A DNA stretch of 64,000 nucleotides from an uncultured Acidobacteriota bacterium (GTDB lineage: Bacteria > Acidobacteriota > UBA6911 > RPQK01 > JAPXNP01), in NCBI GenBank assembly GCA_963777605.1, contig CAVZRV010000027.1, positions 320,001-384,000 of the forward strand, read 5' to 3'. Positions 5,886 to 40,421 of the stretch are shown here, piece by piece (position 1 is the first letter of the stretch; every line of letters begins with the position of its first letter). The notes beneath the pieces were generated by a model. That model was not told the DNA's origin. It searched no databases and saw only the letters and a program-made list of their open reading frames with translations. The position numbers were made by a program, and so were the translations under genes.

Positions 5886-8800
5886 ATGTTCCGCAAACCG
5901 GCGACCTGGATTGTCCTCATTCTAATTTCCACCTGCGGCCTCTTATTTGCCCTGCGATTTTTCTCACAGGCATTTCCGATCGTTTCGCTGGACCTGCGAA
6001 TGGACCGCACCGACGCGATTCAGAGGGCGTCGGAACTGGCCAAGGAACGCAGCATCGGGCCAGCCTCTTTTAAACAGGCCGCGTCTTTCGGGTCGGACAG
6101 CGCTGTTCAGACCTACGTAGAACTGGAGGCCGGAGGAGTTGATGCCTTTCGGAAGCTGATCGAGGGAGGGCTGTACTCCCCGTACCAATGGGAAGTGCGC
6201 CACTTCAAAGAGGGAGAGAAGCATGAGGCCAGTTTCTTCTTCACTCCCGAGGGTAAAAGCTACGGGTTCTCCGAATCTCTTCCAGAGGATGAACCCGGGG
6301 CAAGCCTGTCCACGGAGGAAGCCCGCAAGATTGCCGAGTCGTCCAGCGCCGCCTGGGGCGTTTCGCTCGACCAGTACAACCTGGTTGAGTGGCCGGCAGA
6401 CACCAAACCGGGAGGACGTACCGACCACACGTTCGTGTACCAGCGACCCGATCAGAAGCTGGGCGACGCGGAATACCGGCTCAGCCTGGTCGTCTCGGGC
6501 GATCGACTGACCGGCGTGCAGCACTTCATGAAGATACCCGAGGCCTTCAGCCGCAAGTACCAGGAGATGCGTTCTTCAAATGACACGATCGCTTTTGGTG
6601 CCACGGTGGCGATGGGAATCCTGTACATCATCGGTGGCTGTGTCATCGGACTCTTCTTCCTGCTCCGGCAACGTGCAGTGATCTGGCGCCCGGCCCTGAT
6701 GTGGGGCTGCATCATTGGTGGTCTCCAGTTCCTGGGCAGCGTCAACGAACTTCCTCTCCTTTGGATGGGCTACGACACAGCGCTCTCGGCCGGATCGTTT
6801 CTGGCCCGGCAACTGGTCATGGCAGCGGGAGGGGCCCTGGCCATGGGTGGCGTTCTGACCGTGACGTTCATGGCCGCCGAAGGCCTTACTCGCAAAGCAT
6901 TTCCCGAAGGCTTTCAATTCTGGCGGCTCTGGTCGCCGGGGGTCGCCAACTCGAAGCCGATTCTCGGCCGGACTCTGGCCGGATACCTTCTGGTTTCCGT
7001 CTTCTTCGCCTATGACGTCGCCCTGTACACCTTTTCAAACCGGGCCCTGGGCTGGTGGAGTCCCTCCGAAGCCCTTATCCATCCCGACACTCTCGCAACC
7101 TATTTTCCCTGGCTGAACTCGATCGCGACTTCACTTCAGGCGGGCTTCTGGGAGGAATGCCTGTTCCGGGCGGTTCCGCTGGCGGGTGCAGCCCTTCTCG
7201 GGAAGCGCTTTGGGAAGCGGGGACTCTGGATCGGGGGCGCCCTGATACTGGAAGCGGTGATCTTCGGCGCGGCCCACGCCAACTACCCGGCGCAACCAGC
7301 CTATGCCCGCCTGGTGGAACTGATCATTCCCGCTCTCGGTTTCGGTGGGATCTACCTCTTGTTCGGCCTTTTGCCGGGAATCATCCTTCACTTCACTTTT
7401 GACGTCGTCTGGTTCGCCCTGCCGATATTCGTCTCTACGTCCTCCGGTGTCTGGATCGACAAGGTGCTGGTTGTCGTCCTGACCTTGACTCCACTCTGGG
7501 TGGTTCTCTATTTCAGGACGCGCAGGGGACGCTGGGAGGAGCCTGGTCGCGACACCCATAACCAGGCCTGGGTCCCGGCCCCGCAAGCCGTTGAGGACGA
7601 AGAAGAGGTGCCTCTCGCGGAGTCTCGGCCGGCAACCCGGCTTCCCCGCTGGCTCATATACGGACTCGGGCTGGTTGGCCTGGTCTCCTGGGGAATGCTG
7701 TCCCGATTCGGTTCCGACGTTCCAACCATGAAGATCTTCCGAACCGAGGCCGTTCACATCGCCGACTCGACTCTGGAACAAAGAGGGATTCAGCTCGGGT
7801 CGGAGTGGACCAGGTTGAGTACGATTGACGTCCCGCTCAACGAGAACGATCTCTTTGTCTGGCAAGAGGGGGGGGCGGAAGCTTACCGGGAATTGATGGG
7901 GACCTACCTCGGGCCTCCTTACTGGAGGGTGCGCTATGTCCGATTCGAGGGTGATGTAGCCGATAGGGCGGAGGAGTACCAGGTCCACATCGACCCGTCC
8001 GGGAAGGTCTTCCGCGTACTTCACATCCTCCCGGAGGCCACAGAGGGCGCCCAACTGGATGAAGACCAGGCGAAAGAAATGGCCGACGAGACTCTGCAAG
8101 CCGAGTTCGGGATCAATCCGTCCAACGTGAAGCTCGTCGCCCGTGAGCCGACCCAGCAGCCGGACCGGCGTGACTGGTCTTTCACCTACTCCGACAGTGC
8201 CCACTATCCGCTCCAAAAGGGAGAAGCACGTATCTACATCCAGATTTCGGGCGACCAGGTCACCGATGCCTATCGTTTTGTGTTTGTTCCCGATGAATGG
8301 CTTCGGCAGGAACGGGCGGATCGCAGCACGCTGGACCTGATCCAAATGGTCTCCGGAGCGCTCATCGCAATCCTGGTCTTCGCGGGTGCGATTCTCGCAC
8401 TCGTGAACTGGACCCGGCATCGGTTCGTTCCCCGGTCGTTTCTGATCATCTTCGGAGCGCTCGTTCTCTTCTCGTGGCTCAGTCGCGCGAACGCGGTGCC
8501 CACGTTCCTGGCCGGATTCAGCACCGCCCAACCATTCAGCCTCCAACTGACCGTTCTTGTGCTGGCACTCATCCTCGGCTCCCTGTTCGTGGCTGCGGGG
8601 ACTGCCCTGGTGTACGGGCTGGTCAAATACTGGAAGGCCGTCGAAGGTCCGTCGGCGCGGGAGATCGGGGTAGGAATCGCGGCGGGACTCTTTGTGGCGG
8701 GCTTCGCTGCGGTTGCTTCCGCGACAGTCCCTCAACTGGCGCCCAAGTGGGGAGATCCGAGCCCCGCAGCCGATTTCTTCCCGTTCCTCGGCGTGCTCCT

Positions 8801-9206
8801 GCAGGCGGTCTCGGGACTGGTATCCCAGGTGGTGATCGCCCTGTTTCTCGTCACAGCCCTGAATCGCATTTCCTCGTTCGGTCGCCGGCGACTTCCGATG
8901 GCCGCCTCGGCTCTCGTCCTTTTCGGATTCAGCATTGCCGGAAGCCGAGGAATCGAAGGCCTGGGCTCATGGATCGTCTCGGCGGTGATCCTCACGGTGA
9001 TCTTCGCACTGGTCTATTGGTTCGTCTTTCGGACGAACTCTTCCGCTGTGATCCCGGCAGTTCTCGTCCTGAACCTGGCCGGACTCGGAAAGGCGATTCT
9101 GCAGGATCCGTTCACCGGCATTATCCCGGCTGGAATTGCCGCGGCGGCTCTGATCATTCTGGTCGGCTTCTTCTGGTGGTCCCGCATCGGTAAGGTGAGC
9201 AATTGA
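5886..9206 (+). CDS. CPBP (Abi/CAAX) family intramembrane glutamic endopeptidase with a duplicated extracytoplasmic plus TM module
   Basis: EExxxR (GFWEECLFR), FxxxH (FGAAH) and HxxxD (LHFTFD) motifs; many TM helices; AGGAG RBS. Confidence 0.85.
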   Translation: MFRKPATWIVLILISTCGLLFALRFFSQAFPIVSLDLRMDRTDAIQRASELAKERSIGPASFKQAASFGSDSAVQTYVELEAGGVDAFRKLIEGGLYSPYQWEVRHFKEGEKHEASFFFTPEGKSYGFSESLPEDEPGASLSTEEARKIAESSSAAWGVSLDQYNLVEWPADTKPGGRTDHTFVYQRPDQKLGDAEYRLSLVVSGDRLTGVQHFMKIPEAFSRKYQEMRSSNDTIAFGATVAMGILYIIGGCVIGLFFLLRQRAVIWRPALMWGCIIGGLQFLGSVNELPLLWMGYDTALSAGSFLARQLVMAAGGALAMGGVLTVTFMAAEGLTRKAFPEGFQFWRLWSPGVANSKPILGRTLAGYLLVSVFFAYDVALYTFSNRALGWWSPSEALIHPDTLATYFPWLNSIATSLQAGFWEECLFRAVPLAGAALLGKRFGKRGLWIGGALILEAVIFGAAHANYPAQPAYARLVELIIPALGFGGIYLLFGLLPGIILHFTFDVVWFALPIFVSTSSGVWIDKVLVVVLTLTPLWVVLYFRTRRGRWEEPGRDTHNQAWVPAPQAVEDEEEVPLAESRPATRLPRWLIYGLGLVGLVSWGMLSRFGSDVPTMKIFRTEAVHIADSTLEQRGIQLGSEWTRLSTIDVPLNENDLFVWQEGGAEAYRELMGTYLGPPYWRVRYVRFEGDVADRAEEYQVHIDPSGKVFRVLHILPEATEGAQLDEDQAKEMADETLQAEFGINPSNVKLVAREPTQQPDRRDWSFTYSDSAHYPLQKGEARIYIQISGDQVTDAYRFVFVPDEWLRQERADRSTLDLIQMVSGALIAILVFAGAILALVNWTRHRFVPRSFLIIFGALVLFSWLSRANAVPTFLAGFSTAQPFSLQLTVLVLALILGSLFVAAGTALVYGLVKYWKAVEGPSAREIGVGIAAGLFVAGFAAVASATVPQLAPKWGDPSPAADFFPFLGVLLQAVSGLVSQVVIALFLVTALNRISSFGRRRLPMAASALVLFGFSIAGSRGIEGLGSWIVSAVILTVIFALVYWFVFRTNSSAVIPAVLVLNLAGLGKAILQDPFTGIIPAGIAAAALIILVGFFWWSRIGKVSN

Positions 9207-11329
9207 GGGTCATCCCGGCCGCGCTGGCGGATCAACTCTTCGAACGCCTTTCGTCCACCGCCCGGATCTTGAGAGGAGCCGAGTCGTTGGCGGAAATGCG
9301 CGCCCCCCAGGTTGCTCGCGTGGTCTCTGTTGAGGGCGGTGCGGCACTCCTGCAACTGGGCGAACGGCAAGTCCTGGTCCGGGCACCCTGGCTGAAGCCG
9401 GGCGAAACCGTTCTGGCTAGACCCTTGAGTTCCTCGGACCCGACACCTTCGAGTATCGAAATCGTCCGCCTGGATTCCTTCGGGGCCGTCACACGGCCTC
9501 CTGAAAATCCCATTCAGGCACTTCCTGCGGTCCTCGACCAAGTCAGCGTCGGACGGCAGGCACAACTCGTCGCATCCGGTCCAACGCCGCAGCTAATGAG
9601 AACGGTGGAGACGCTGACCTGGGAGCGGTTATTCGAGTCGATCAACCCGGAAGCCCGCAAGCTACCTGATGCCTCCACGACGGCGACGGATCGAGAGTTC
9701 CTGCCTGACCGGGTTATCTGGTTTCGGAACGAGCTCACTTCCGGCAATCGGCAACCTGCACCGGAGAGCCCGCTACTCCTGTATGGGAAAGCTCCGCAGG
9801 GCCGGCCAGCCGCAACACCACCATCCTCCAGCCAGGAACCCGGACCAGAGCAAACTCTGCAGGCCGTCGTAATCCAGCGTCTCGGTGATGTGGTCGTGGT
9901 CCGGACTCCAGAAGGGCTTGGCGTCACCGCAGCGACGAGTGAGGACGCTCCGGCCGACAGCCCGTCGGCCCCAGTCTCCCAGAGAGCAGGAGCGCGCAAG
10001 GTTGCCGGCACTCAGCCGAACCTCCTCAACCGGGCCTCAGAGCCCATTGCGGGACCGGCAGTCAAAGACAATTCCGGCACAGAAGCTCTCGCCACCGCGG
10101 GGCTCGAAAAGGCCGTTCTGTTGACCAGCCGGCAACAAGTTTCAATATTCGCGACAAGCCGCGGTTTGGTCTTGGGCAAGCCTGCCCTGGAGGCTACTCC
10201 CGCTTCTGAGTGGATACTCGCCCGGGCCCCGGGCAACCAGGCTTCCCAGCCGGATGCCCCAATCCCGGCCAGACCGATCCTGGGAGCCGAAGAAATTCAC
10301 GCCTGGAGCGCAGCGCACCCGGGAAAACTTCTGGAGACCCGGGTCGCCGGTTGGGAGGAAGGCCATCTCTACCTGGAAACCGACCGAGCAATGCTGCGGG
10401 TCCAATCGGAGCGCCCCCTCAGGCCGGGGCGGACACTTCTCGTCCAGGTAAGGAACCAGGGCCCCGGAATCGAATTGCGACCGGTTGAACCGGTCCAGCA
10501 ACATCACCACCTGGTAGAGCGAATGGCCGGTTCGGGACCCGGTCACTGGACGGCAGCATCCCCGCCATTGCGCCAACTTGCGCGGCTTCTGGTCACCCTT
10601 CACGGGGTCCTGCCGGACTCCGCCAGAACCACGGAGAACCTGCAAGCGGTGGCCCCCGATGCACTCCTGGCAAAGGGCCGGGAGGGTGCCGAGCGACTGC
10701 TGCGTGATTCCGGCATCTGGTACGAAAGCAAACTTGCGTCGACCCCCACTCCCGAGGCGATGTCTCGAATCGCCCGCGAGGACCTCAAAGGCATGCTCTT
10801 GCGCCTCCTGGAGCCGCAGGTCAATCGCGATGGAGACGGTTCGAACGACCTCATCAGACGTTTGGTTGAGGGTCACCTGAATTCTATCGAGTCTCAGCAG
10901 GCAAGGGGCCTGGCGGCATCGTGGCGGGATTGGGGCTGGATTCTCGACCTGCCATGGAGCGGCAATTTGCCCGCTCGCCTATTTCTTGGTGAAGAACCGT
11001 CCGAAAGGAGGTCACGGGAAGAAAAAGCAGGCGGCCGGAGAATCCTCTTTCTTCTGGACCTCGAGAGCGCGGGCAACCTCCGAATCGATGCCCAGGTGGA
11101 ACCCGGACGTGTCGTGGCCAATGTTTTCGCGGAACAGAACGAATTTCGGGATTACCTTGCAGGGCAGATCGACCACCTGGAGAAGGCGCTTCGTGAAGCC
11201 GGCTACCCCCAGGCCAGAGTGAGAGTGCTGGCAACTTCGGACCAATCCCCGGAGTGCCGGGAGGACTTCGAGCAATTGGTACTGGGGCGGCCTCCGAAAG
11301 GACAGCAGGAACTGGACATGAGGGCATAG
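9203..11329 (+). CDS. FliK-like flagellar hook-length control protein
   Basis: Pro/Ala-rich body; SGIWYESKL and DLKGMLL segments; C-terminal LDLESAGNLRIDAQV...LEKALREAGY...LDMRA FliK_C-like domain; next to an FlhB-like gene. Confidence 0.65.
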   Translation: MRVIPAALADQLFERLSSTARILRGAESLAEMRAPQVARVVSVEGGAALLQLGERQVLVRAPWLKPGETVLARPLSSSDPTPSSIEIVRLDSFGAVTRPPENPIQALPAVLDQVSVGRQAQLVASGPTPQLMRTVETLTWERLFESINPEARKLPDASTTATDREFLPDRVIWFRNELTSGNRQPAPESPLLLYGKAPQGRPAATPPSSSQEPGPEQTLQAVVIQRLGDVVVVRTPEGLGVTAATSEDAPADSPSAPVSQRAGARKVAGTQPNLLNRASEPIAGPAVKDNSGTEALATAGLEKAVLLTSRQQVSIFATSRGLVLGKPALEATPASEWILARAPGNQASQPDAPIPARPILGAEEIHAWSAAHPGKLLETRVAGWEEGHLYLETDRAMLRVQSERPLRPGRTLLVQVRNQGPGIELRPVEPVQQHHHLVERMAGSGPGHWTAASPPLRQLARLLVTLHGVLPDSARTTENLQAVAPDALLAKGREGAERLLRDSGIWYESKLASTPTPEAMSRIAREDLKGMLLRLLEPQVNRDGDGSNDLIRRLVEGHLNSIESQQARGLAASWRDWGWILDLPWSGNLPARLFLGEEPSERRSREEKAGGRRILFLLDLESAGNLRIDAQVEPGRVVANVFAEQNEFRDYLAGQIDHLEKALREAGYPQARVRVLATSDQSPECREDFEQLVLGRPPKGQQELDMRA

Positions 11330-11907: not shown

Positions 11908-13869
11908 ATGAAAATCCTTCTCAGTTCGGTGTTTGGACCGTATGGTGTCGATGACGAGTATGGTCGCAAAGAGAACATCATGGAACTGTTCCACAATCAG
12001 GTCACGCGGGAGCAGGGACTTTTCTCGTTCCGGTTCCACCACAACAGTTTCGGCCTGAACCTGATCGCGGAGAACCTGACCGTCCCAACAACCGTTCTCG
12101 ACTTTCCGTCGCAGGAACGGTTCATCGAGGAAATCCGCAAAGGCTACGACTACATCGGCATCTCTTTCATCGTGCCGAATTTCGTGAAGGCCCGGCGAAT
12201 GGCGGAACTGATCCGTCAGCACGCACCGAACAGCAAGATCGTCCTCGGCGGCCATGGTGTCACTGTTCCGGACATCGAGAACCTGATTGAACACGACCAC
12301 ATCTGCAAGGGTGAAGGGGTGCGCTGGTTTCGGGCTCTGCTCGGAGAAGACCCCGAGAAGCCGATAAAGCATCCATCGTTGCCGTCTGCATTCGGACGCA
12401 GAGTTGCGGGGATTCCGTTGAAGAACATGGAGGCCGCAGTCCTGATCCCCGGAGTCGGTTGCCCCAACGCCTGCCGGTTCTGCTGCACCAGCCATTTCTT
12501 CGACAAGAGCTACACGCCATACCTGGAAACGGGTGACGACCTGTTCCGGGCCTGCCGCGACATCGAAGAGAACCTTGGCAGCACGGAGTTCTTCGTCATG
12601 GACGAGAACTTCCTCAAGCGCCCGGAGCGCGCGCGCCGGTTCATGCAACTCATGGAGGAGAACAACAAGTTCTACCGCTTCGGCATTTTCTCGTCAGCGG
12701 AGACGATTGCCGACGTCGGAGTCGAGTTCATGGCACGCCTCGGTGTCTACTTCGTCTGGCTGGGCGTCGAGTCGAAAAAGGAGATCTACAACAAGAACCG
12801 CGGCATCGATCACAAGGCGATGATTCAGGAACTGAGGGACCACGGTATCAGCGTGCTTGCGTCTGGGATCCTCTTCCTCGAGGAGCACGACAAGACGACG
12901 ATCTGGGACGATATCAAGTTCATTGTCGACCTGGGGTCCGACCTGGTTCAGTTCATGCAGCTTGGTCCCCTGCCCGGGACGAAGCTCTACCATGACTACG
13001 ACGAGAAGGGGCTGCTTCGAAAGGACCTGGCTTACGAAGAGTGGCACGGTCAGCACCAGATCTGGTTCCGGCATCCCAGCTTCACGGCAGAGGAATCGGA
13101 GGATTACCTGCGGCAGGCGTTCCGCTACGATTACGACAACCAGGGCTCTTCCCTGCTCCGGATGTGCCAGACCATTATCAGGGGATACAAGACACTCGGC
13201 CGTTACCAGGATCCCTACATGGTCAGGCGCAGAGAAATGCTCCGAAACATGGCCACTGAATATCGTCAGGTGATCAGGGTTCTCAAGAGGTACGCCCACA
13301 ATGACAGGGCTCGCGAACTGGCTGAAGCACTGAATGCCGAGTACGAGGCTCAACTGGGCCCGATGCCGCTCACGCAGAAGGCCATGTCGCTGATGGCCCT
13401 GCCGTACGCCGCCATGGAGATCCGGCGGATCCGTAACGGGAAATCGATGTACCAGCCCGCCACCCGGACGACTCATTACCGCATGTCGCTGGTTGACCTT
13501 GCGGCCCAGAGCATCAGGGGAAGGAACAGTTCGAACCTGCTCAGCACTGAAATCAAATGGGTCGAGTCCCCGGTCCACGTCGAAGTCGGTGGTGTCATGG
13601 ATGGAGTGAATGCGACCAGTCTGGCCCAGCGGCTCACCGCCTACCTGAGCCGTGAAGACGGGGACTTGACGATCAACCTGAACCTCCTGGTTCACATCGA
13701 AGACGGGGCGCTGAACGGGCTTCTGATGACGATCAGCAACTACCGCGACAGGGTGAAGCTGGTGTTCGAAGAGGGCGCCGAAGCAGTCAAAGAGTCCCTG
13801 GAGAACCTCCCGGCTGAGCTGCGGCTCCTCCTGGTAGACACCTCGCCAGGCACCCAGACCCCCGGCTAG
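11908..13869 (+). CDS. Cobalamin-binding radical SAM protein with a C-terminal STAS-like domain
   Basis: B12-binding-like YIGISF..KIVLGGHG; CxxxCxxC motif (CPNACRFC); MDENF, GVES and PLPGT motifs. Confidence 0.88.
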   Translation: MKILLSSVFGPYGVDDEYGRKENIMELFHNQVTREQGLFSFRFHHNSFGLNLIAENLTVPTTVLDFPSQERFIEEIRKGYDYIGISFIVPNFVKARRMAELIRQHAPNSKIVLGGHGVTVPDIENLIEHDHICKGEGVRWFRALLGEDPEKPIKHPSLPSAFGRRVAGIPLKNMEAAVLIPGVGCPNACRFCCTSHFFDKSYTPYLETGDDLFRACRDIEENLGSTEFFVMDENFLKRPERARRFMQLMEENNKFYRFGIFSSAETIADVGVEFMARLGVYFVWLGVESKKEIYNKNRGIDHKAMIQELRDHGISVLASGILFLEEHDKTTIWDDIKFIVDLGSDLVQFMQLGPLPGTKLYHDYDEKGLLRKDLAYEEWHGQHQIWFRHPSFTAEESEDYLRQAFRYDYDNQGSSLLRMCQTIIRGYKTLGRYQDPYMVRRREMLRNMATEYRQVIRVLKRYAHNDRARELAEALNAEYEAQLGPMPLTQKAMSLMALPYAAMEIRRIRNGKSMYQPATRTTHYRMSLVDLAAQSIRGRNSSNLLSTEIKWVESPVHVEVGGVMDGVNATSLAQRLTAYLSREDGDLTINLNLLVHIEDGALNGLLMTISNYRDRVKLVFEEGAEAVKESLENLPAELRLLLVDTSPGTQTPG

Positions 13870-13917
13870 ATCGATGGCAGGCACGTGTTGGGGAGCCTGA
13901 AAGTCATACCCTCTGTT

Positions 13918-13985
13918 GGACTTTTTATCGGGCGTTGATGGGACTTTTCCGTTGCGAGTCCTTTCGGGACTTCACGGACTTGACG
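13918..13985 (+). promoter_or_regulatory. GGACTT direct repeats overlapping a TTGACG -35-like box upstream of the HTH gene
   Basis: GGACTT at 13918, 13941, 13967 and 13976; 9-nt units gagtccttt/cgggacttc/acggacttg; TTGACG at 13980. Confidence 0.4.
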
Positions 13986-14063
13986 TCAAGCTGTTGCGAA
14001 ATAAAGACATCCCCTCAAGTGCCTGAAGCTGGAACGGGAACTGCTCTGAGAAGTGTTCCGATT

Positions 14064-14336
14064 ATGAACTTCTCAGCACCCCGATCTACGCAACAATCCG
14101 CCGGCGGGCCCAGTGGACCGACCGGCCTTCTCCAGATCTACCTGTCCAGTTCCCGAAAGGAGCGGACTCAGAGGTTCATCGACACCCGGGCCGCGGCTGA
14201 ACTCACCGGCCTGTCCCGCAGAACCATTCAGTGGTGGATCGAGACAGGCCTGATCGAGGCCGTCCGAATTGGGCGTCGCTACCAGATCGACCGGAGGTCT
14301 CTATTGACGCACCTCAGTGCAGTCTCGAGTTGCTGA
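14064..14336 (+). CDS. Small excisionase/MerR-like helix-turn-helix protein (HTH_17, BldC/Xis-like)
   Basis: IDTRAAAELTGLSRRTIQWWIETGLIEAVRIGRRYQIDRRSL. Confidence 0.85.
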   Translation: MNFSAPRSTQQSAGGPSGPTGLLQIYLSSSRKERTQRFIDTRAAAELTGLSRRTIQWWIETGLIEAVRIGRRYQIDRRSLLTHLSAVSSC

Positions 14337-14444
14337 GGTCGGAAGCACCCCTCCAGGCCGGAAGGGCTCCCCGATGCAGCAGTCACTCTCCTTCCGGGAA
14401 CGGTGTGGTAATTTCGTGCGCTGAAACCCTCCAAAGTTGAGGGG

Positions 14445-15170
14445 TCATTCAAATCGCGAGAGGTTTGCGGTAGCCCTGTCCAGAAGAAAGAGAGTGATCA
14501 TCGGCGAAGCGATCAAGACAATCGATGCACACAGCAGCGGAAGCAGAGTCGGGCCTGTTGATGATGACTGCGATCCGAGGAAGTTCACGGCTACCGCGAG
14601 GAGAATGCCACACCCGAATTGGATCCCTATCCAGAAGGCGTCGCGACCCGGACTCCTCTCGGGGCGTATCACCGCCCAGAACTGGAAGGCAATCAAGGGC
14701 ACGATGACGTAGAGGTTGGAGACAACCGCGAGGATACTGAACAGTCCCCTCCCCATCCAGGGCAATTCCGGAGCCGCTCCGGCCATCCCCAGTACCAGGG
14801 AAGGGCTCCCCGCTATCAACAGCACTGCCGACGACGAGATCCCCCACAGCGAATATCCGAGGATGATTTCGAAGGGATGTCGTGAGAGCAGGCGAAGCCA
14901 GGACAGACTCCCGCCGTCCCTGGCCTGAAGAGTACCGAGAAAGACCATCAGCAGGCTTGCGGGGAGCGCCGCCTCAAACCCGAGACTCTGGATCCGAGCC
15001 GAAATCAGGGGGTCTCCGAAATCAGGGATCAGCCCGGACAAAGGTATCCACAAAAGTTCGATGCTCGCAGCCACCAGGAGCGGGGTCCGCAACGACCTGA
15101 ACTGGACCCAGGCAATTCTCCTGGAACGCTCCCACCATCCAGTTCGAATGCCTCTCGGCAAGATGTCCAT
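14445..15170 (-). CDS. Multi-pass membrane protein, ABC-2 permease-like
   Basis: ~6 hydrophobic segments; LSWLRLLSRHPFEII parallels WNWLRLLSPHPRALV in the adjacent permease; 3-nt gap to it. Confidence 0.6.
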   Translation of the reverse strand: MDILPRGIRTGWWERSRRIAWVQFRSLRTPLLVAASIELLWIPLSGLIPDFGDPLISARIQSLGFEAALPASLLMVFLGTLQARDGGSLSWLRLLSRHPFEIILGYSLWGISSSAVLLIAGSPSLVLGMAGAAPELPWMGRGLFSILAVVSNLYVIVPLIAFQFWAVIRPERSPGRDAFWIGIQFGCGILLAVAVNFLGSQSSSTGPTLLPLLCASIVLIASPMITLFLLDRATANLSRFE

Positions 15171-15173
15171 GAC

Positions 15174-15851
15174 TCAGGCCCCGTCTCTCGTGAAGCGGGC
15201 TCCCAATTCGACGGCGAGAACGGCAAAGCCCAGGCCGGCTGCACCCGCCAGTATGACTGCCCCGAATGCCTCGCCGGGCGAAAGCGTCGGGATCTCCAAC
15301 GACAGGGCGCCATTTGCCTCTCCCAGCATCAGGGCGGCACTCGCAAACATCTCGATCGAGCAAAGCCCCAGGATCACCGCCAGGTAACCACGCCTCACCG
15401 CAACTACCAGGACAAAAACCACGCAGCCCAGGATCCACCCTGCTGCCGTCATGACAAACCAGACGGCAATGCGGAGCGAGGATCCGCCAATCGTGTCATG
15501 AACCAGCCAGCCCGGAAGAAGAGCCAGGCTGAAGAGCCCGTAGAAGAGGAATGAGACCAGCAGCTTTGCCGACACGAGGGCGCGAGGATGGGGCGACAGC
15601 AGCCGCAGCCAGTTCCAGGTCTTCCTTGTCTTTTCCCGGAAGATCACCAGTGTCGGGAAGACCACCCCCGCCAGGACACAAAGCGACGCCGTCACGGCCA
15701 GAAGGAGCGGATCGGCAGTGTCGCCAAAGAACACCAGGGCGAGGCATCCCCCGACCGCCAGCAAAGCCACGGGCAGTAGCGGGAGCCCCAGTTCGACCAG
15801 GTCCTTTCTCAATATCCTCAGCACCGATCGCACCATGGTCATCCCCACCAT
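15174..15851 (-). CDS. ABC-2 type transporter permease
   Basis: ILRKDLVEL start and REKTRKTWNWLRLLSP..LVSAKLL motif typical of ABC-2 permeases; abuts the ATPase gene. Confidence 0.8.
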   Translation of the reverse strand: MVGMTMVRSVLRILRKDLVELGLPLLPVALLAVGGCLALVFFGDTADPLLLAVTASLCVLAGVVFPTLVIFREKTRKTWNWLRLLSPHPRALVSAKLLVSFLFYGLFSLALLPGWLVHDTIGGSSLRIAVWFVMTAAGWILGCVVFVLVVAVRRGYLAVILGLCSIEMFASAALMLGEANGALSLEIPTLSPGEAFGAVILAGAAGLGFAVLAVELGARFTRDGA

Positions 15852-16538
15852 CTACTGGTCGGCCGGATAATGACTCCAGAACCAGTCGGCAATCCCGTCC
15901 TCACCCACTTCGGCGGCCGGAGTGTCCCCAACGATCCGCCCTCTCTTGATCAGCACATAACGGGAGGATAAAGGGGTCAGGTCCTCGAACACGTGACTCG
16001 ACACGATCACTGCGCAGGAGGAGCGCTCCCGATGGTCCGAGACAGCCGCTGAGAATTCCCGCTTGGCCACCGGGTCCAGTCCTGCTGTCGGCTCGTCCAG
16101 CAGAAGCAGAGGTGGGTCATGGGCCAGCGCGCAGATGAGTCCCAGCTTGATCTGGTTGCCCCGCGACAACTCCGCGTATTTCAAGCTGAGCCTCAGTTCG
16201 AGCCGTTGCGCAAGGGCGACGGCGTAACCACGGTCCCACCCGGAGTAGAAGCCGGCCACGAATTCGAGCACGTCATAGCCCTTCATCCAGTCGTAGATAT
16301 CGAGCCGATGCGGAAGATATCCCACCCTGCCGCCGCTTTCACCCAAACGACGTTTCAGTTCCCCGCCCGTCGGGCTCCGGAGTCCGGCCGCCATCTCCAG
16401 AAGCGTGGTCTTGCCGGCTCCATTTTCACCGAGTAACCCCACGACCTCGCCATCTCCAACCGACAGATTGAACGGACCGACACGGATACCGTTGGGGTAG
16501 GTCTTTTCCAGTTCAAGACACTTGAGAATGGTCGTCAT
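15852..16538 (-). CDS. ABC transporter ATP-binding protein
   Basis: Walker A GENGAGKTT, signature LSRGN, Walker B LLLLDEPTAGLDP, SSH switch. Confidence 0.95.
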   Translation of the reverse strand: MTTILKCLELEKTYPNGIRVGPFNLSVGDGEVVGLLGENGAGKTTLLEMAAGLRSPTGGELKRRLGESGGRVGYLPHRLDIYDWMKGYDVLEFVAGFYSGWDRGYAVALAQRLELRLSLKYAELSRGNQIKLGLICALAHDPPLLLLDEPTAGLDPVAKREFSAAVSDHRERSSCAVIVSSHVFEDLTPLSSRYVLIKRGRIVGDTPAAEVGEDGIADWFWSHYPADQ

Positions 16539-16550
16539 CCCAAATCCCTC

Positions 16551-17180
16551 TCAAAATCCGCCGATCCTTACGACTACCTCATACGCCAGGTAGGGACCGG
16601 CAACACAGACCACTGACCGCCGCCAGCGAATGTTCAGGACGGCAGAAGCTGCCCCTGAAGCGAGCACCAAGTACCAGATCTTTGCGGCGACATGAAAGAG
16701 CCCAACCGTCTGGAGGACCCAACTGTGCTCCATCGCGGCGGCAACCGCTCCGGGGTCGAGGGCTTGCCCGGAATCCAGCCCGTCGGGAGGATTCAATGCC
16801 AGCAGAACAAAGCCTGCAGCACCCGCCAGAACGAACGGAAGGTAGGCATACCCAATCAACTCGACCAGCTTCCGGAAACGGATTTCCGCATTCCAGAAGA
16901 GAATCGCCGCGGTACCGATGACCCCGGCAATCAGCGGCCACGTCAGTACGTACACAACCAGGAACAGGAGACTCTGCACCAACCCGAAGCGCTCGAGAAA
17001 CTCCTGCATAGCTTCCGGAAGATTTGACGAGAAGGCGCGTGAAACCAGGTTGACCGAACCGGAGGCCAGACCGCCTGCGACGACTACCAACGCCGCAGGA
17101 ATGGTCCACTCGAACGGGCGGGTGACTCGGGACCGAAAGAAGCCGTTCGGATCGATTAGAAAGGAGAGGGCGTCCGACAT
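16551..17180 (-). CDS. Yip1 family membrane protein
   Basis: GGAGGA RBS before ATG 17180; LIDPNGFF start, FRKLVELIGYAYLP motif, ~5 TM helices. Confidence 0.8.
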   Translation of the reverse strand: MSDALSFLIDPNGFFRSRVTRPFEWTIPAALVVVAGGLASGSVNLVSRAFSSNLPEAMQEFLERFGLVQSLLFLVVYVLTWPLIAGVIGTAAILFWNAEIRFRKLVELIGYAYLPFVLAGAAGFVLLALNPPDGLDSGQALDPGAVAAAMEHSWVLQTVGLFHVAAKIWYLVLASGAASAVLNIRWRRSVVCVAGPYLAYEVVVRIGGF

Positions 17181-17728
17181 AGTTCCTCCACGATGATCCC
17201 AATCGTGACTTCGGCTTCGATGAACGCGGCCAACACCGTCAACCCCATTGCCAAGCCGAAGGCCACCGGGAGAACCCTCAGGGCTCCAGGTTGAAAGAAC
17301 GCTCCGCCGCCAAGAAAGGTGCCGGTGAAACGGGGGCCGAGAAAGCCGATCCCCGCCGCCAGCCAGAGCCCGCCCAGTTCCATGGAATGCGGCGCCGAAG
17401 CCCAGAAGATTTGCAACGGTTCCAATCCACCCTGCCAGGCCGCGCCGGCCACCGCCCCAAAAACAAATCCAGACCCGGCCACCGTCATGAAAGTTGTAAT
17501 CCCAAAAGTAAAAAGCCCCAGAGCGGCAAGAAGCACCACCAGTGAGTTGACCTTGAGAATGGCCAAGAAAGAAGGGGCAATGATCAAGGGAAGAAGCGGC
17601 GAGGTGGTCGGGATCGAGTCCTTCGGGAAATGGGAGGTTATCAGGATTCCGCAAGAGCAAGCTGACATCCACAAGAGCAAAGCCCACAAGAATCCATTAC
17701 CCAAACTCCGATTAAGGACACACCTCAT
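17156..17728 (-). CDS. SpoIIM / DUF95 family membrane protein
   Basis: ILKVNSLV, APHSMELGGLWLAAGIG (PHG..E-type motif) and VLAAFIEAEVT motifs. Confidence 0.8.
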   Translation of the reverse strand: MRCVLNRSLGNGFLWALLLWMSACSCGILITSHFPKDSIPTTSPLLPLIIAPSFLAILKVNSLVVLLAALGLFTFGITTFMTVAGSGFVFGAVAGAAWQGGLEPLQIFWASAPHSMELGGLWLAAGIGFLGPRFTGTFLGGGAFFQPGALRVLPVAFGLAMGLTVLAAFIEAEVTIGIIVEELCRTPSPF

Positions 17729-17788
17729 TTCCGGCCCCCGCAACGGCACGGGTTTTCTCCGAAGCCGCCCGGAACTCCCTTCTGTCCA

Positions 17789-18220
17789 TCACCACTCACT
17801 GCAGGTCCCGTCTGAACTTGCCCCTGGCGTAGCCACGTACTTTCGGAGCCTGGTCTGTGTGTCACGAATCATGAAGTAGCAACCCATAATCACTCCAGCG
17901 GCAAACAGGTGTGCGAGCGCAAGTATTCCGAAGTAGCGATCGACATCATAGGTTGATCGAATCACCAGCCCTCCGAGACCGGTCAAGGTCACGGCAAACA
18001 GAACCACCAAGACAAGGACGGCGATTCTCCTCCCAAGGCTGATACATTTCGCGCCAGCAATGAAAGCGACTGAAAGGGTAAGAACGATGCCTGCGTCAGT
18101 AATGACGGTACCTGCGAACCAAGCCAGATCGTCAATGTTCCTCAAAACAAGGAGGTACACTTGGGCTACAAAGACTGTTGCGGCAATCGACAGTAACAAC
18201 ACTCCCCATTTCATAATCAC
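17789..18220 (-). CDS. 4-TM membrane protein, candidate immunity/accessory protein
   Basis: AAGGAG RBS; four hydrophobic helices; lies between the precursor and SpoIIM genes. Confidence 0.65.
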   Translation of the reverse strand: MIMKWGVLLLSIAATVFVAQVYLLVLRNIDDLAWFAGTVITDAGIVLTLSVAFIAGAKCISLGRRIAVLVLVVLFAVTLTGLGGLVIRSTYDVDRYFGILALAHLFAAGVIMGCYFMIRDTQTRLRKYVATPGASSDGTCSEW

Positions 18221-18321
18221 TTCTCCTTCATTCTCGCCCGAAGTAGGAGTGCAAAAACTCCGGACTCAAAAGAGCTCCGTGCGTATCAGCCTCAGCACTA
18301 GTCCATTCATTTGAGATCAGC

Positions 18322-18354
18322 GGACGCGGCAATTGGGGATGGACTACCGCGTCC
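18322..18354 (-). terminator. Stem-loop downstream of the precursor gene (partial terminator or mRNA-stabilising hairpin)
   Basis: ggacgcggcaat (18322-18333) and actaccgcgtcc (18343-18354) form an inverted repeat; no U-tract. Confidence 0.55.
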
Positions 18355-18388
18355 TGGTTGAAAAAGAACAAGATAGTGGACCGGTGAT

Positions 18389-18646
18389 CTAGACTGCGAC
18401 TGCAAACCCTGCAGCCCACCCGGCAGGAGTACACACCAAAGTGCCGGCTGCGATTCCCCATAGTGTCGAGTGCAGGGCACCGGTCGTGCCCAAGATCAAT
18501 CCCGCCTCGGCAGAACCTCTATCGGACCTGGCGCAAAGGTAGCCGATCCCCACCCACATTTTTCCATCCATGACTCCGACCTGGCCGAGCGCCAGGGTCG
18601 AGAAACAGGCCAGCAGCAGCACCGCCGCCATCAGTCTTCGCTTCAT
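18389..18646 (-). CDS. Putative circular (head-to-tail) bacteriocin-like precursor peptide, 85 aa
   Basis: AGGAGGAGG RBS; signal-like leader MKRRLMAAVLLLACFSTLALG; Gly/Ala-rich hydrophobic core ending PAGWAAGFAVAV; first gene of a SpoIIM-Yip1-ABC operon. Confidence 0.75.
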   Translation of the reverse strand: MKRRLMAAVLLLACFSTLALGQVGVMDGKMWVGIGYLCARSDRGSAEAGLILGTTGALHSTLWGIAAGTLVCTPAGWAAGFAVAV

Positions 18647-18844
18647 CTCGATCCTCCTCCTGAATCCGACCGGGAGAACCATTCATTCGCCTCTCCCGGC
18701 CCATCACCGGGCCTCTCCGGCCCGGCGGTTCGATCCCGAGGCCTCAGGGCTGTCTCAATCTTCGACGTCGGATCCGCGCCCGGCACCGACCGGGCAACGC
18801 CGTCCCGGTTACCCTATCCTCAGTCCTTTCAACTGTCCAGCGCG

Positions 18845-18871
18845 GAATGCGCCGATTGCGCCAACTGCGCC
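18845..18871. repeat. Three tandem 9-bp direct repeats (nnnTGCGCC) upstream of the precursor gene
   Basis: gaatgcgcc gattgcgcc aactgcgcc. Confidence 0.6.
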
Positions 18872-19373
18872 GCAATCGTTTCGAGGTGCCCGAAATCCGG
18901 TTCTGGGACCGGGCCTGGGTGGACCGTGTTGAGGAAGTCCGCTATCGCCACCCACTGTGACCTCACGTGTTGGCGATTGGCGGTTGCATCATCGAATCTG
19001 CGCGGTGGCGCACGGTTTCAGAACAAACCGGAAATCAAGAATCCTGAATTGAGACTGTTCTGGCTTTCCCTCCAGAAACGAGAAACCAGGAACCACAGGA
19101 GCTCATCCCAAATGAAGTCTCAAGCGATGCCGGGAGTGGGGTCGCCGTCGACCTCAGGTTGGAGTAGGAGTCATCGAATCGGAAGAGATTCGCTTTCTGT
19201 GCTCAGGGTCCACAGGAAGTGTGGAAAAGGCTGTGAAAAACCTGCGGCAGCTCAGTTGGACTCAGTGTCCGCTGCGGTTTGCACGATTCTAGTGCACCGC
19301 CCTCCAAAGGACACAATCCACCAAAAAAACGCAGAATTCAGTGTAAGATATGCAATGGTGGTATACTTCTTGC

Positions 19374-19473
19374 AGGCGGCCAAACAGGGAGACCCTCCTT
19401 TGAGGACCCCAACGCTCTCTCCTCCTTAAAGATCTCCCCTCGCGGCCGCCTTCGCTGAGCAGGGGATCTCAGC
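19374..19473. other. Structured intergenic element (candidate sRNA, REP-like element or terminator)
   Basis: Nested pairings 19374-81/19444-51, 19386-92/19433-40 and 19398-406/19423-31; second hairpin gctgag/ctcagc; TATACT at 19362. Confidence 0.4.
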
Positions 19474-19496
19474 AGGTCCCTCCGACCCAAATCCAG

Positions 19497-20096
19497 TCAT
19501 TGACGGCCAAACGGCATCAGGTAGACCGGTGTCTGACCTTCAGGGAGCCTCAGGACGCCTGCCGCATCTCCGGGACGAAAAGCTGCGATGACCACCGTCC
19601 CCAAGCCCAACGCTTCGGCTTGGAGGTGTACATTTTGCCCGGCGTGCCCTACCTCCATGTGCACGTAGTCTCTGGCCGCGTCACCGAACTTCGGCTCGCT
19701 TCGGGCATAACAGGCGGAAATCACCAGGACGGCTGCAGATTCGAGGATTGAGGTTTGGTTGAAGGTAGTGTCGAATAACGGTTTCAAGAGCTCCCCCCGG
19801 ACCCCGGGAGTCAACGAGTGGTTCGATCCGTCGTAAGAATACAGACCGGCCTCGAGCCCGGACACGTTTGCTGCGACCAAAGAGATTTCCAGTGGATAGC
19901 ACTCCATTGCCGACGGGGTGGTGCGCCACCCGTTCGGCCCGGTCACCCCGTAAGCGCTCCACAACAATTGGCCAACTCGTTCCAAGCCGATTGTTTCCGG
20001 GCTAAAAGTACGGGTAGACCGTCTCCGAGACAGCGCTTCTTCGACAGTAACAGTCCCTCTTTGCGAGGGTTCAGGCAGAGTGATCATTACTTTCAA
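19497..20096 (-). CDS. SagB/ThcOx-type nitroreductase family protein
   Basis: LSRRRSTRTF, RTTPSA..YPLE and EVGHAGQNVHLQAEALGLGTV motifs. Confidence 0.9.
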   Translation of the reverse strand: MKVMITLPEPSQRGTVTVEEALSRRRSTRTFSPETIGLERVGQLLWSAYGVTGPNGWRTTPSAMECYPLEISLVAANVSGLEAGLYSYDGSNHSLTPGVRGELLKPLFDTTFNQTSILESAAVLVISACYARSEPKFGDAARDYVHMEVGHAGQNVHLQAEALGLGTVVIAAFRPGDAAGVLRLPEGQTPVYLMPFGRQ

Positions 20097-20255
20097 ACTC
20101 CTCCAGCAATCGCAGGCACCGCCCGCACCAGCAGGGTCCGCTTACCGTCCCCCCAAGCCTGCCATGGTAGCAGACGGCCGGACCGGGATCGCGAAGCCGG
20201 CTCCGGATGCGGTACCATTTTCAGGCGCCTCCGCTCCAAGAGGGAAGATGGCACT

Positions 20256-36887: not shown

Positions 36888-37898
36888 ATGCAGCTGAAAG
36901 GGGGAAGGTTTGCTCGGGGCCATCGAGCAGAAATAGTGCCGATTTCCGGAGGGAAGGGTGGCGTCGGGAAAACGCTCGTTGCGTCCAACGTGGCTATCGG
37001 CCTGGCACAGGCCGGTCATTCCACGGTCGTCGTAGACCTCGACCTCGGGGCGTCGAACCTGTTCGCCTTCCTTGGCCTCACCAACCGGTATCCGGGGATC
37101 GGGGATTTTCTGAAAGCCCGGAGAGGAAAACTGGAAGACCTTTTGGTCCAGACCGACGTCCCAAATCTTTACTACCTGCCGGGTGACGGCCGGACCCCCT
37201 TCATGGCGAACATCGGTTTCGCGCAGAAACAGAAACTCCTGACGGCCCTGTATTCCCTCCCTTTCGAGTATGTCCTGCTCGATCTCGGCTCGGGCTCCAC
37301 CTTCAACACGCTCGATTTCTTCGCCATGGGGAAGACGGGCTTGATGGTCACGACCCCGGACTATCCTGCCGTCGTGAACATGCTCACCTTTTTGAAGAAT
37401 CACCTGTTTCGCAGTATCGAGAGGTCGGTTTCCCCCAACCACTCTGTGAAGGGTATTCTCCAGGAACTCTATTGCCAGCCCATCGAGGAGCAGGTCAGCT
37501 CGGTTTCATCCCTGCAGGCTCAGATCAGGGAAGAAGATCCGGCGGCTGCCGAGACGGTAGCGAGGATCTGCAACGAGTTCCGCCCGCGGATCGTGTTCAA
37601 CATGGGAACTTCCCCCAAGGACCTCGAGTTTACCGACCAGATCGACGAGGGATTACGGAATGTTCTCTATCTCGAAGCGGACTACTTCGGATTCATCTTC
37701 ATGGATGCGCAGGTGCGTTCATCGGTGCGAGAGCGCCAACCACTTGTCCTGAGCCATCCCGAGAGCCCTGCCGCACAGGAGATGATCAAGATCGCCGACC
37801 GAATTCTGCGCTTCTGGTCCACGCCGGTCCCCAACAGCTCCGATTTAATTTTGAACCACGCCCGCAAAACTTTCGACGAGCACTTCCAAGGCCACTAG
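36888..37898 (+). CDS. MinD/FlhG-like P-loop ATPase
   Basis: Deviant Walker [10 protein letters not shown]; [10 protein letters not shown]; LLDLGSG. Confidence 0.88.
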
Positions 37899-39214
37899 GG
37901 CAAGCGGGTCCGGTTGCGTGTCAACACCTCGTCCAGGGTTTCGACAACCCGGTCCCCATCGTCCCGGGAAAACACGAGAGGGGGCTTGATCTTGATTACA
38001 TTGTGAAAGGGTCCGTCCGTGCTGAGGAGGATACCGCGCTGCTTCATCTCCTCAACGATCGCAGTGGCTGCAGACCCTGCCGGTTCCCGGCTGTCCCGGT
38101 CAATAACGAGTTCGACGCCGATGAACAGGCCTCGTCCCCGGACATCTCCGACCAGGGGATGGCGCTTCATCAACTCGCGCAGACCATTCAAGAACGATGT
38201 GCCGACCTCGGCGGCATGTTGCTGGAGTTCCTCTTCTTCGATGACCCTGAGAACCGCCAGCCCAACGGCACAGGAAACCGGGTTCCCGCCGAACGTGTTG
38301 AAGTACTCCATTCCATTGCAGAACGAATCGGCAATCTCCCGTGTCGTGATCACTGCCGCCAGAGGGTGTCCGTTACCGATCGGTTTTCCGGCAGTCACCA
38401 CGTCCGGCACGACCCCCTGCATTTGAAACCCCCAGAAGTTGCTCCCCACCCGTCCGAATCCGACCTGAACTTCGTCGGAAATGCAGACACCTCCGGCCCT
38501 TCGCACGCCCTCAAAGGAAGCACGGAGATAGCCATCCGGCAAAACCACCTGCCCCCCGCAGCTCACGATCGATTCTGCGATGAATCCCGCCAGGCCCAGC
38601 TCACGTGTTCGCTCGGCTGCTTCGGTCACCTCGGCGGCGTAGAGTGCCCCCAGGTCGCCGTCCCGGTCCCGGAATTTGCCCCGGTATCGATCCGGGATCG
38701 GCACCTTGTGGGTGTGCGAAGGAGCACCCGCGCCGCCTTTCCCATCGAACTTGTAGGGACTGATTTCGATCAGGTCTCCGGTGTGGCCGTGGTAGGCATG
38801 ATCGACCACGATCATGTCGCGCGACCGGGTGTGGGTCCGGGCCAGGCGAAGAGCCAGATCGTTGGCTTCGCTCCCCGAGTTCACGAAGAAACAGACTTCC
38901 AGCGGATCGGGAAGGGTATCGGTAAGCCGGTTCGCATATTCAACGATGTTGGGATGGAGGTAGCGTGTATTGGTGTTGAGGTTCGCCATCTGGCGCGCTG
39001 CCGCCTCAACAACTCTTGGGTGGCAGTGCCCCACATGACAGACATTGTTGACGCAGTCCAGGTAGCGGCGGCCCTGGTCGTCGAACAGGTACTGTCCCCG
39101 ACCCTTCACAATCAGCAAGGGCTCGCGGTAGGAGAGGCTGAGCGAGGGGCCGATCCGACGCCTGCGTTCCGCCAGAATTGTCTCTCGTGGGTCCGAAGCT
39201 CCATCGATGTTCAT
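37895..39214 (-). CDS. Class III PLP aminotransferase, AGXT2L/phospho-lyase-like
   Basis: [48 protein letters not shown] and YFNTFGGNP motifs. Confidence 0.9.
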
Positions 39215-39253
39215 GACAGTCACCTCAAACAATCGGGAAATTCGTCGGCCGGC

Positions 39254-40300: not shown

Positions 40301-40421
40301 TCACTCCGCCGTCGTTCCGGCCCAAAAGGGCCGGGCCCAAAACGAGAAAAGGGGTGCCGAACCGTTGCCGGTTCGACGCCCCCGCGCAAAGACACGATCC
40401 TCGAGGTCGGCCCAGGCCGGC

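Follow-up and report, generated by a model that had tools for sequence, protein, structure and literature searches.

Head-to-tail cyclised bacteriocins are encoded by compact clusters in which the precursor gene is accompanied by genes for a SpoIIM/DUF95 membrane protein, an ATP-binding protein and ATP-binding cassette (ABC) permeases, and often by a YIP1 gene, as laid out in the accessible portions of PMC8534725, PMC8659200, PMC5695211 and the altitudin S preprint. In these excerpts, SpoIIM/DUF95 is termed class-defining (PMC13289728, PMC5695211), an ATP-binding protein is present in all reported clusters (PMC8534725), YIP1 is a frequent but not obligatory accessory (PMC8659200, altitudin S preprint), and the enzyme responsible for leader removal and ring closure is said never to have been identified (PMC8659200, PMC5695211, altitudin S preprint). 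The experimentally known producers are, in the accessible text, Gram-positive only, and the predicted range is almost entirely Firmicutes: Xin et al. counted 6,925 predicted precursors in Firmicutes, two in Actinobacteria and one in Thermotogae; van Heel et al. placed nearly all in Firmicutes, with five in propionibacteria and one in Novosphingobium; and Major et al. found mainly Firmicutes. Here we analyse a 64,000-nucleotide stretch of DNA from an uncultured Acidobacteriota bacterium (the window), in which seven minus-strand genes at 14445-18646 encode a small hydrophobic precursor peptide, a protein with four transmembrane helices (4-TM protein), a SpoIIM/DUF95 protein, a Yip1-family protein, an ABC ATPase and two permease-like proteins. 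The initial annotation had taken this gene set for the core of a cyclised-bacteriocin cluster, a class that it regarded as characterised essentially from Bacillota; both statements agree with the literature excerpts above, and all seven co-oriented genes are present in the order it described. We judge the chances to be evenly balanced that these genes form a ribosomal-peptide locus of bacteriocin type, akin to those for circular bacteriocins. Its machinery is known; the precursor family, the leader type, a minimal core that does without the ATPase and the diderm hosts are new. The wider claim of a complete cluster for a new circular peptide family in a Gram-negative lineage therefore stands as regards the diderm host, the new family and the class gene set, whereas circularity is deduced from gene company only.

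The precursor gene (18389..18646, minus strand) encodes 85 amino acids (aa), and its ATG is preceded at 7 nt by AGGAGG. The leader, approximately residues 1-28, consists of MKRR, 17 uncharged residues and then ALG|Q, where the bar marks the predicted cleavage site. From two residues before a conserved Trp to the stop codon extends a hydrophobic, Gly/Ala-rich core of about 57 aa, with plentiful GxxxG-like spacing, an isoelectric point (pI) of 8.1, a net charge of +1 and a grand average of hydropathy (GRAVY) of 0.77. The precursor thus has the build described for circular clusters, a small protein with a leader and a hydrophobic helical core that runs to the stop codon, with a core slightly shorter than published ones. 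Structure predictions with AlphaFold2 (AF2) were of middling confidence for the whole precursor and the core alone (predicted local distance difference test 69.5 and 72.4; predicted template modelling score 0.40 and 0.47, respectively), and three helices were predicted for the core. Foldseek found nothing in the Protein Data Bank (PDB) at E <= 0.001 with either model; a wide VIA-align search with the core model listed designed helical proteins as its best matches (Z up to 5.5), with no circular bacteriocin among the matches listed; and in PDB sequence searches the precursor and its profile met nothing but a methyltransferase and a catechol dioxygenase, at E ~1. These generic helical matches speak neither for nor against any particular fold, including the compact saposin-like one with adjacent termini that is typical of circular bacteriocins.

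A word-based search with the precursor returned the window's own protein only, as would be expected if the 85-codon open reading frame (ORF) were not a gene and the cluster were a chance juxtaposition of membrane-protein genes. An exhaustive phmmer search, on the other hand, recovered 11 further representatives, genome searches added six more orthologues in Acidobacteriota, and a profile search of a large protein collection recovered 61 clusters (90% identity) at E <= 0.001, none with a Pfam domain. Because this family and its synteny, kept in 11/11 loci across two phyla, are conserved, and given the strong ribosome-binding site, we regard the chance-ORF explanation as refuted and give it almost no weight. 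For each of the first four genes the same gene order is found in homologous loci of other genomes, so the operon genes are not chance ORFs. The precursor family is, on profile comparison, new to Pfam and NCBIfam; it is carried in databases under the name 'hypothetical protein' only, and its homologues came to light through phmmer and profile searches, in agreement with the new peptide family that the initial annotation had proposed. It occurs in Acidobacteriota and in Bacteroidota (Prevotella, Elizabethkingia, Tannerellaceae and Pleomorphovibrio). Individual deposits (P0024, P0060, P0011 and P0018) come from a Prevotella salivae metagenome-assembled genome (MAG; 18 sequences on 78 contigs), Elizabethkingia meningoseptica, a Tannerellaceae MAG and the cultured Pleomorphovibrio marinus, the last with WP_114752001.1 as its family member.

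An alignment of 18 members shows a charged and then hydrophobic start, a variable linker and a conserved core, W-V-G-x-G-Y ... S-A-E-x-G ... G-G-P-x-G ... V-G-L, terminating at the stop codon. Across the family the cores are 52-57 aa long and contain 37-48% Gly+Ala, with a pI of 4.1-10.8, a net charge of -4 to +3 and a GRAVY of 0.73-1.04. The strict Trp motif was found in 42 of 69 family sequences; the other 27 carry Tyr, Phe or Ile in place of Trp or other motif changes, and a few are N-terminally short or over-long. In 39 of the 42 Trp-motif members the distance from Trp to the stop codon is 50-55 residues, the three outliers appearing truncated or frame-shifted, and the last residue is L, V, M or A in 40. 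As leader length varies from 10 to 76 residues among the same 42 sequences, the C-terminus is fixed while the leaders vary.

Gene context was read for 11 family loci: the window, six further genomes (G024, G046, G056, G126, G182 and G193) and four metagenome contigs (L027-L030, with a GC content of 36-48%) found by searching with a four-row alignment. A small SpoIIM-like gene of 170-230 codons adjoins the peptide gene in every one of them (7/7 genomes and 4/4 contigs), and a further Yip1-like membrane gene with 4-5 helices is also present in 11/11. The Pfam Yip1 cut-off is reached in the window only; the G126 protein scores 24.2 bits and the others have no match at E <= 0.1. A 4-TM gene lies between precursor and SpoIIM in 4/11 loci and diverges fast. 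Since all 11 loci keep the peptide, the small SpoIIM and the Yip1-like gene, and do not all keep the ATPase or the 4-TM gene, the first three constitute the invariant unit, and the transporter and the 4-TM gene are accessory. The co-occurrence of precursor homologues with SpoIIM and Yip1 genes, expected in the initial annotation, is therefore found throughout, that with an ABC ATPase in 3/11 loci only.

This module belongs to diderm hosts, in the window's case a soil-type bacterium. The window comes from a genome of 6.7 Mb in 53 contigs that is 96.7% complete and encodes LpxC (340 bits) and five Omp85-family matches, which implies an outer membrane; 'MAG: Acidobacteriota bacterium' is the title of two genomes from its GTDB order. 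The genome is thus that of a diderm Acidobacteriota MAG, as the initial annotation had supposed in calling it Acidobacteriota-like and probably diderm. None of the top-ranked literature linked SpoIIM/DUF95 clusters to Acidobacteriota or described circular bacteriocins from Bacteroidota, though earlier Gram-negative predictions may exist, for instance in supplementary taxon lists.

Within Acidobacteriota the module is patchily distributed and looks mobile. The family profile matches 7 of 401 genomes of the phylum at E < 1e-7 and 12 of 401 at E <= 0.01, with five weak matches (G093, G097, G251, G253 and G327) at E 0.0015-0.0086, and the window's SpoIIM was found in 3/60 relatives and 0/15 of its own family. 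A transposase ORF of 445 codons, of which an identical copy lies 9 kb away, splits the SpoIIM gene of G056 (L009); the G193 copy is degraded and its Yip1-ABC region has collapsed (L026); and in G024 the 4-TM gene is duplicated (74% identity) beside a 451-codon ORF (L007). This patchiness, with copies decayed or split by an insertion sequence, favours a competition locus over a housekeeping one. It bears on a third explanation, in which the peptide serves as a small structural or regulatory protein of the envelope or inner membrane, alongside a SpoIIM-Yip1 complex, and the ABC transporter has an unrelated export task. In favour of such a role, SpoIIM is widespread in Acidobacteriota and in control organisms without known circular bacteriocins, the net charge of the peptide is near zero, and the operon lacks an outer-membrane export component. 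Patchiness, decay, the two peptide paralogues of some related clusters, the hypervariable peptides beside conserved machinery and a dedicated ABC exporter are, however, typical of competition loci; they disfavour a non-antibiotic role, which we consider improbable.

The small SpoIIM of the module differs from the common type. Most PF01944 (SpoIIM) matches in the phylum are large, of 320-400 codons and >100 bits, and at only one of 30 large-type loci did a crude filter pick up a small hydrophobic ORF nearby on the same strand, an ORF that overlaps the SpoIIM ORF itself. In 12 of 16 further small-type regions, by contrast, one or two signal-bearing, small, Gly/Ala-rich hydrophobic ORFs were seen by eye just upstream, usually along with a Yip1-like gene and often with an ABC ATPase and permeases; the other four (G010, G114, G074 and G088) showed no peptide of this sort. 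Some of these related clusters hold two peptide paralogues. Variable peptides beside conserved machinery are what one would expect to see if these loci served peptide maturation or bacteriocin production.

One of these 12 regions is a second locus in the window's own genome, on contig C10 at ~297700-301300 (L061, 3705-7301). It encodes a signal-bearing peptide with two Cys, a Yip1-like protein (213 aa), a small SpoIIM (184 aa), a CxxC protein (166 aa; sub-threshold to Thioredoxin_2, E 0.069), an ABC ATPase and an ABC-2 permease, and its gene order is repeated in G007 (L062). A distinct 'Q-W-A-Y...' peptide type, with a long Pro/Ala-rich linker after a signal-like start, two conserved Cys and a core of ~42 aa, occurs at L069 (G164), L070 (G273), L072 (G387) and L074 (G300), each adjoined by a small SpoIIM, an ABC ATPase, permeases and a Yip1-like gene; in G300 a true TlpA-like redoxin (AhpC-TSA, 72 bits) lies downstream. 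Among the CxxC/thioredoxin-fold genes of the two-Cys-peptide clusters, one is thus a true redoxin (72 bits) and two are sub-threshold.

The small SpoIIM type is, on sequence comparison, akin to the SpoIIM proteins of annotated circular-bacteriocin clusters. In tblastn searches of 72,556 plasmids, the SpoIIM of metagenome contig L028 matched only two Clostridium perfringens plasmids (E 6e-5, 31% identity), and in the one region read (L077) the matched gene lies beside an annotated circularin A/uberolysin-family gene and an ABC ATPase. For the SpoIIM of L030 the only plasmid match came from Listeria innocua (E 9e-3; L078), where an AS-48-like precursor and an ABC ATPase are encoded next to the matched gene. 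A profile of ten peptide-linked SpoIIM proteins gave this Firmicutes pair 90 and 48 bits, whereas large-type proteins reached 28-44, and the window's SpoIIM scored 22 bits on a two-sequence Firmicutes profile against 6 on the large-type profile. In a tree of 48 rows (10 + 13 small-type, two Firmicutes and 23 large-type sequences, omitting six of the 30 large-type loci owing to over-long ORF calls and one partial row), the large type forms a clade with support of 100/99, and the split that sets it apart leaves both Firmicutes proteins with the window. The sole plasmid matched by the window's Yip1 in tblastn, weakly (E 0.04), was Methanomethylovorans hollandica pMETHO01, where 92.4-100 kb (L079) encode two nearly identical 66-aa hydrophobic peptides, a SpoIIM, a YIP1, an IS1 transposase and an ABC ATPase with a permease. 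Similar modules thus exist beyond Bacillota, as on this archaeal plasmid.

The other proteins of the window's module fit the class with varying clarity. Its SpoIIM/DUF95 protein (17156..17749, minus strand; 197 aa) is read from a GTG at 17749, with an alternative ATG at 17728. Homologues beside the same peptide family score 34-76.5 bits on PF01944, all 7/7 tested passing the Pfam cut-off, and N68, P120, H121, E124 and E178 are invariant over 11 SpoIIM sequences. A word-based search with this SpoIIM returned only itself and one metagenomic relative, and a SpoIIM-alignment search of genome contigs returned two loci that were both already in the set. The Yip1-family protein (16551..17180, minus strand; 209 aa) scores 50.6 bits on PF04893, over the cut-off of 28.6, so that the frequent accessory of the class is present here, as the initial annotation had it; it matches its positional equivalents in G024, G046 and G056 at BLASTP E 1e-8 to 1e-10, and its links to the metagenome loci are weak. 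The ABC transporter ATP-binding protein (15852..16538, minus strand; 228 aa) scores 72.3 bits on ABC_tran, and its best NCBIfam rows, all sub-cut-off, are DrrA, PmtA and GldA-type exporter ATPases. Permease 1 (15174..15851, minus strand; 225 aa), of ABC-2 type, reaches 24.4 bits on ABC2_membrane_4 (cut-off 27) and matches a profile of permeases from other small-SpoIIM clusters at E 3.6e-8. Permease 2 (14445..15170, minus strand; 241 aa), a permease-like membrane protein, matches no family at a curated cut-off and is a diverged paralogue of permease 1 (BLASTP E 0.001 over 73 aa). The window thus contains the ATP-binding protein and transporter of the class, as one ATPase with two permease-like genes. 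The 143-aa 4-TM protein (17789..18220, minus strand), whose helices were read by eye, has no Pfam or NCBIfam family and is a candidate immunity or accessory protein; genes of its size and position stand between precursor and SpoIIM in G024, G046, G056, G311 and G120, with faint similarity (best BLASTP E 0.003).

Subgroup II (gassericin A, acidocin B and butyrivibriocin; PF12173, BacteriocIIc_cy) is among the closest described systems. It shares with the family a small, neutral-to-acidic, very hydrophobic helical core of ~55-58 aa and a leader of 20-35 residues, according to the partial text available; the altitudin S preprint, in excerpt, gives cores of ~58 aa, leaders of 22-35 residues and a pI of 4-10. 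In subgroup II, as here, the precursor gene adjoins SpoIIM/DUF95 and transporter genes. The present family differs in having no sequence or profile homology to subgroup II, diderm Acidobacteriota and Bacteroidota hosts, a Sec-like leader, a slightly shorter core with ~40% Gly+Ala, and a putative cyclisation. The AS-48, uberolysin and circularin A clusters (L077 and L078) combine a precursor, a small SpoIIM and an ABC ATPase in one operon, as in the window; their cores, however, are cationic, 60-70 aa long and unrelated in sequence to the window's family (hhalign probability ~1% or less), L077 and L078 lack an annotated Yip1, and the window's SpoIIM is too diverged to match theirs directly. Cerecyclin, pumilarin and altitudin-type Bacillus clusters, compared by inventory only from the accessible parts of PMC8534725, PMC8659200 and the altitudin S preprint, have the same set of precursor, SpoIIM, YIP1, ATPase and permeases, but monoderm hosts and cationic cores of 70-76 aa.

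Ring closure is favoured by the constant company of SpoIIM, the kinship of this SpoIIM to those of circular clusters, the fixed hydrophobic C-terminus and the subgroup II-like core size. On these grounds head-to-tail cyclisation appears to be the most likely single modification of the product, at a probability that we put somewhat short of even. Proximity in language-model features offers a weak lead in the same direction: with the whole peptide, cyclic-bacteriocin clusters stood at ranks 1, 8 and 20 (PF12173 at rank 1, 0.80), and with the core alone PF09221 and PF16942 stood at ranks 2 and 3 (0.81), these cyclic-bacteriocin scores of 0.76-0.81 all lying below the tool's 0.9 line.

A number of results pull in the opposite direction. 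The window's precursor gave nothing in Pfam, nor in NCBIfam at E <= 1; PF12173, PF09221 and PF16942 were matched by 0/18 members at E <= 10; and when compared by hhalign with two annotated precursors of circular bacteriocins, it reached probabilities of 1.1% and 0.3%. The precursor accordingly falls outside the known circular families (PF09221, PF12173, PF16942 and TIGR03651). The window's SpoIIM matches PF01944 at E 4.2e-5 and 24.0 bits, under the cut-off of 26.9, so that the SpoIIM assignment of the initial annotation is upheld for the window by a sub-cut-off match and for its homologues by matches that pass. It had no plasmid match of its own at E <= 1, and the branch joining the window's group to the Firmicutes SpoIIM proteins has a support of 85/84 only, with low-GC rows flagged for deviant composition. 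PF01944 is, moreover, present in 127/401 sampled Acidobacteriota genomes, a count that includes one genome flagged as unpublished (G202), and also in control genomes without known circular bacteriocins (Caulobacter, Bacteroides and archaea); because it is so widespread, mostly as the large type that has no peptide gene next to it, a SpoIIM gene does not by itself identify such a cluster. An ABC ATPase is adjacent in three of the 11 loci (the window, G126 and G182) and missing beside the other eight; a profile of the cluster-type ATPase found none in 16-19 kb around the module of G024, G046 and G056, nor on the short metagenome contigs. By our own heuristic, a Sec-like leader is present in 18/18 aligned members, with an n-region of net charge +2 to +6 and an h-region of 14-26 uncharged residues followed by small residues. 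Neither a Tat (twin-arginine) nor a lipoprotein leader fitted, by eye, since the RR pair is not conserved and no lipobox with G/A/S before Cys was seen. General peptide-ligation chemistry suggests that Sec export would place maturation in the periplasm, where there would be no ATP to activate a free C-terminal carboxylate, and the precursor has no C-terminal follower peptide. The Sec-like leader, the lack of an ATPase beside 8/11 loci and the lack of precursor homology thus weaken the case for ring closure. A signal-like leader is nonetheless not foreign to the circular class, because the AS-48-like precursor from the Listeria plasmid has one, with 35 residues, a charged start and a 17-residue hydrophobic stretch.

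The Sec-like leaders of the family would suit a linear, unmodified, membrane-active peptide, comparable to class II-like or glycine-zipper-type bacteriocins of diderms, that is secreted by Sec and freed by signal peptidase into the periplasm. In that case the task of SpoIIM, Yip1, the 4-TM protein and the ABC transporter would be immunity and expulsion from the producer's inner membrane, and not modification. Besides the Sec-type build of 18/18 members and the rarity of an adjacent ATPase, this explanation draws on the GxxxG-like spacing of the core and on weak matches of 4/18 members to Gly-zipper_YMGG (PF13441; best E 0.074), with one member each matching PF13436 (E 2.1) and PF13488 (E 9.6). 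All of these matches, however, are far under the curated cut-offs, so that membership in the glycine-zipper families PF13441, PF13488 and PF13436 is not seen at those cut-offs. The ten nearest language-model neighbours of the core alone include a Gly-zipper cluster and BlpM, and the CxxC and thioredoxin-fold genes of the related two-Cys clusters fit maturation outside the cytoplasm. YknW works with an ABC transporter in Bacillus subtilis and protects against a secreted toxic peptide; the YknWXYZ operon has a Yip1-family gene beside an ABC transporter, as does the window, and the window's Yip1 matches NCBIfam YknW_fam weakly (E 1.2e-4, 21.7 bits; cut-off 110), which would suit a protective role. 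To our knowledge, the YknWXYZ operon contains no SpoIIM gene and no peptide gene. What a role in immunity alone leaves unexplained is the constant presence of a small SpoIIM (11/11 loci) and the nearness of its type to the SpoIIM proteins of circular-bacteriocin clusters, and a strictly fixed C-terminal end would be needless for a linear toxin. We therefore consider the linear peptide a serious alternative, though an unlikely one taken by itself.

Under the cyclised-bacteriocin reading, the signal-like leader would bring the 85-aa precursor to the inner membrane and would be removed a few residues ahead of the conserved Trp. A membrane complex of the small SpoIIM/DUF95 protein and Yip1 would handle the 52-57-aa Gly/Ala-rich hydrophobic core, whose ends would be ligated head-to-tail. 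The 4-TM protein and the ABC transporter, with its one ATPase and two ABC-2 permeases, may export the peptide, shield the producer's membrane, or both, and the product would target the membranes of competitors; the cleavage site, cyclisation, export route, immunity and antimicrobial activity are all inferred. Complex prediction with the SpoIIM and precursor alignments gave a score of 0.01, in a run made without controls, and speaks neither for nor against binding. A bolder version of this scheme would have the SpoIIM/Yip1 pair alone cut and ligate a Sec-delivered precursor without a dedicated ATPase, in what would be the first head-to-tail cyclised class made by diderms, with SpoIIM, through its invariant Asn, Pro-His, Glu and Glu, as the circular-bacteriocin cyclase. 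We put this forward as doubtful, slightly less probable still than the linear peptide.

The layout of the operon is compact in its distal part. The SpoIIM and Yip1 genes overlap by 25 nt and the subsequent gaps are 12, 0 and 3 nt, which confirms that the last five genes abut or overlap, and neither a TolC nor a membrane-fusion protein was among the profile matches of the operon proteins, again as initially annotated. The gap of 168 nt between the precursor and the 4-TM gene contains a G+C-rich hairpin with a 12-bp stem and a 9-nt loop (~18322..18354, minus strand). Its stem is retained in both the minimum-free-energy and the centroid structure, and folding of the entire gap gives z = -1.9. The hairpin has no U-run and was not called by the terminator scan; it may be a partial attenuator or an RNA-stability element. 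The promoter scan found 0 promoter-like sites, and terminator-like sites numbered 6 against 7.0 expected. The sole Rfam match in 13800-20200, a sub-threshold eukaryotic internal ribosome entry site, was dismissed, and no second copy of the precursor was found in the window (E <= 1).

The 850 nt upstream of the precursor (18647-19496) contain no convincing ORF on the operon strand, no sigma-70-like promoter and no above-threshold Rfam match. Beyond them, on the same strand, lies a nitroreductase gene (19497-20096), which we considered as a SagB-like partner and rejected, as it matches the generic Nitroreductase family only and no such gene was seen upstream in the related loci read. At 11908-14336 on the plus strand, genes for a B12-binding radical SAM protein (653 aa) and a small HTH_17/MerR-like DNA-binding protein converge on the 3' end of the operon; nothing was found that ties them to the cluster. 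Elsewhere in the window, long ORFs at 5886-9206, 37472-40465 and 134-1876 (1106, 997 and 580 aa, respectively) have no Pfam match at E <= 1e-5, and the ORF at 9203-11329, beside the first of these, carries a FliK-like hook-length domain. The tRNA scan found no tRNA in the window, and no integrase was recognised there.

The minimal cluster found here in two Gram-negative phyla, with its invariant peptide, small SpoIIM and Yip1-like protein, offers a smaller system for probing the role of SpoIIM, and a way to examine in concrete terms how cells with two membranes deal with a hydrophobic peptide toxin. The family comprises at least 61 unannotated clusters, including ones from a cultured marine Bacteroidota species and from human-associated Prevotella, and current detection rules for ribosomal peptides and bacteriocins would miss it, because its precursor matches no family model. 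If the product is linear, the loci would still encode secreted, membrane-active peptides of a new family, each with handlers of its own. If the cyclised reading is true, they would amount to an arsenal of ring peptides, so far overlooked, among the Gram-negative bacteria of soil and of host-associated communities, with Prevotella and other Bacteroidota among the carriers.

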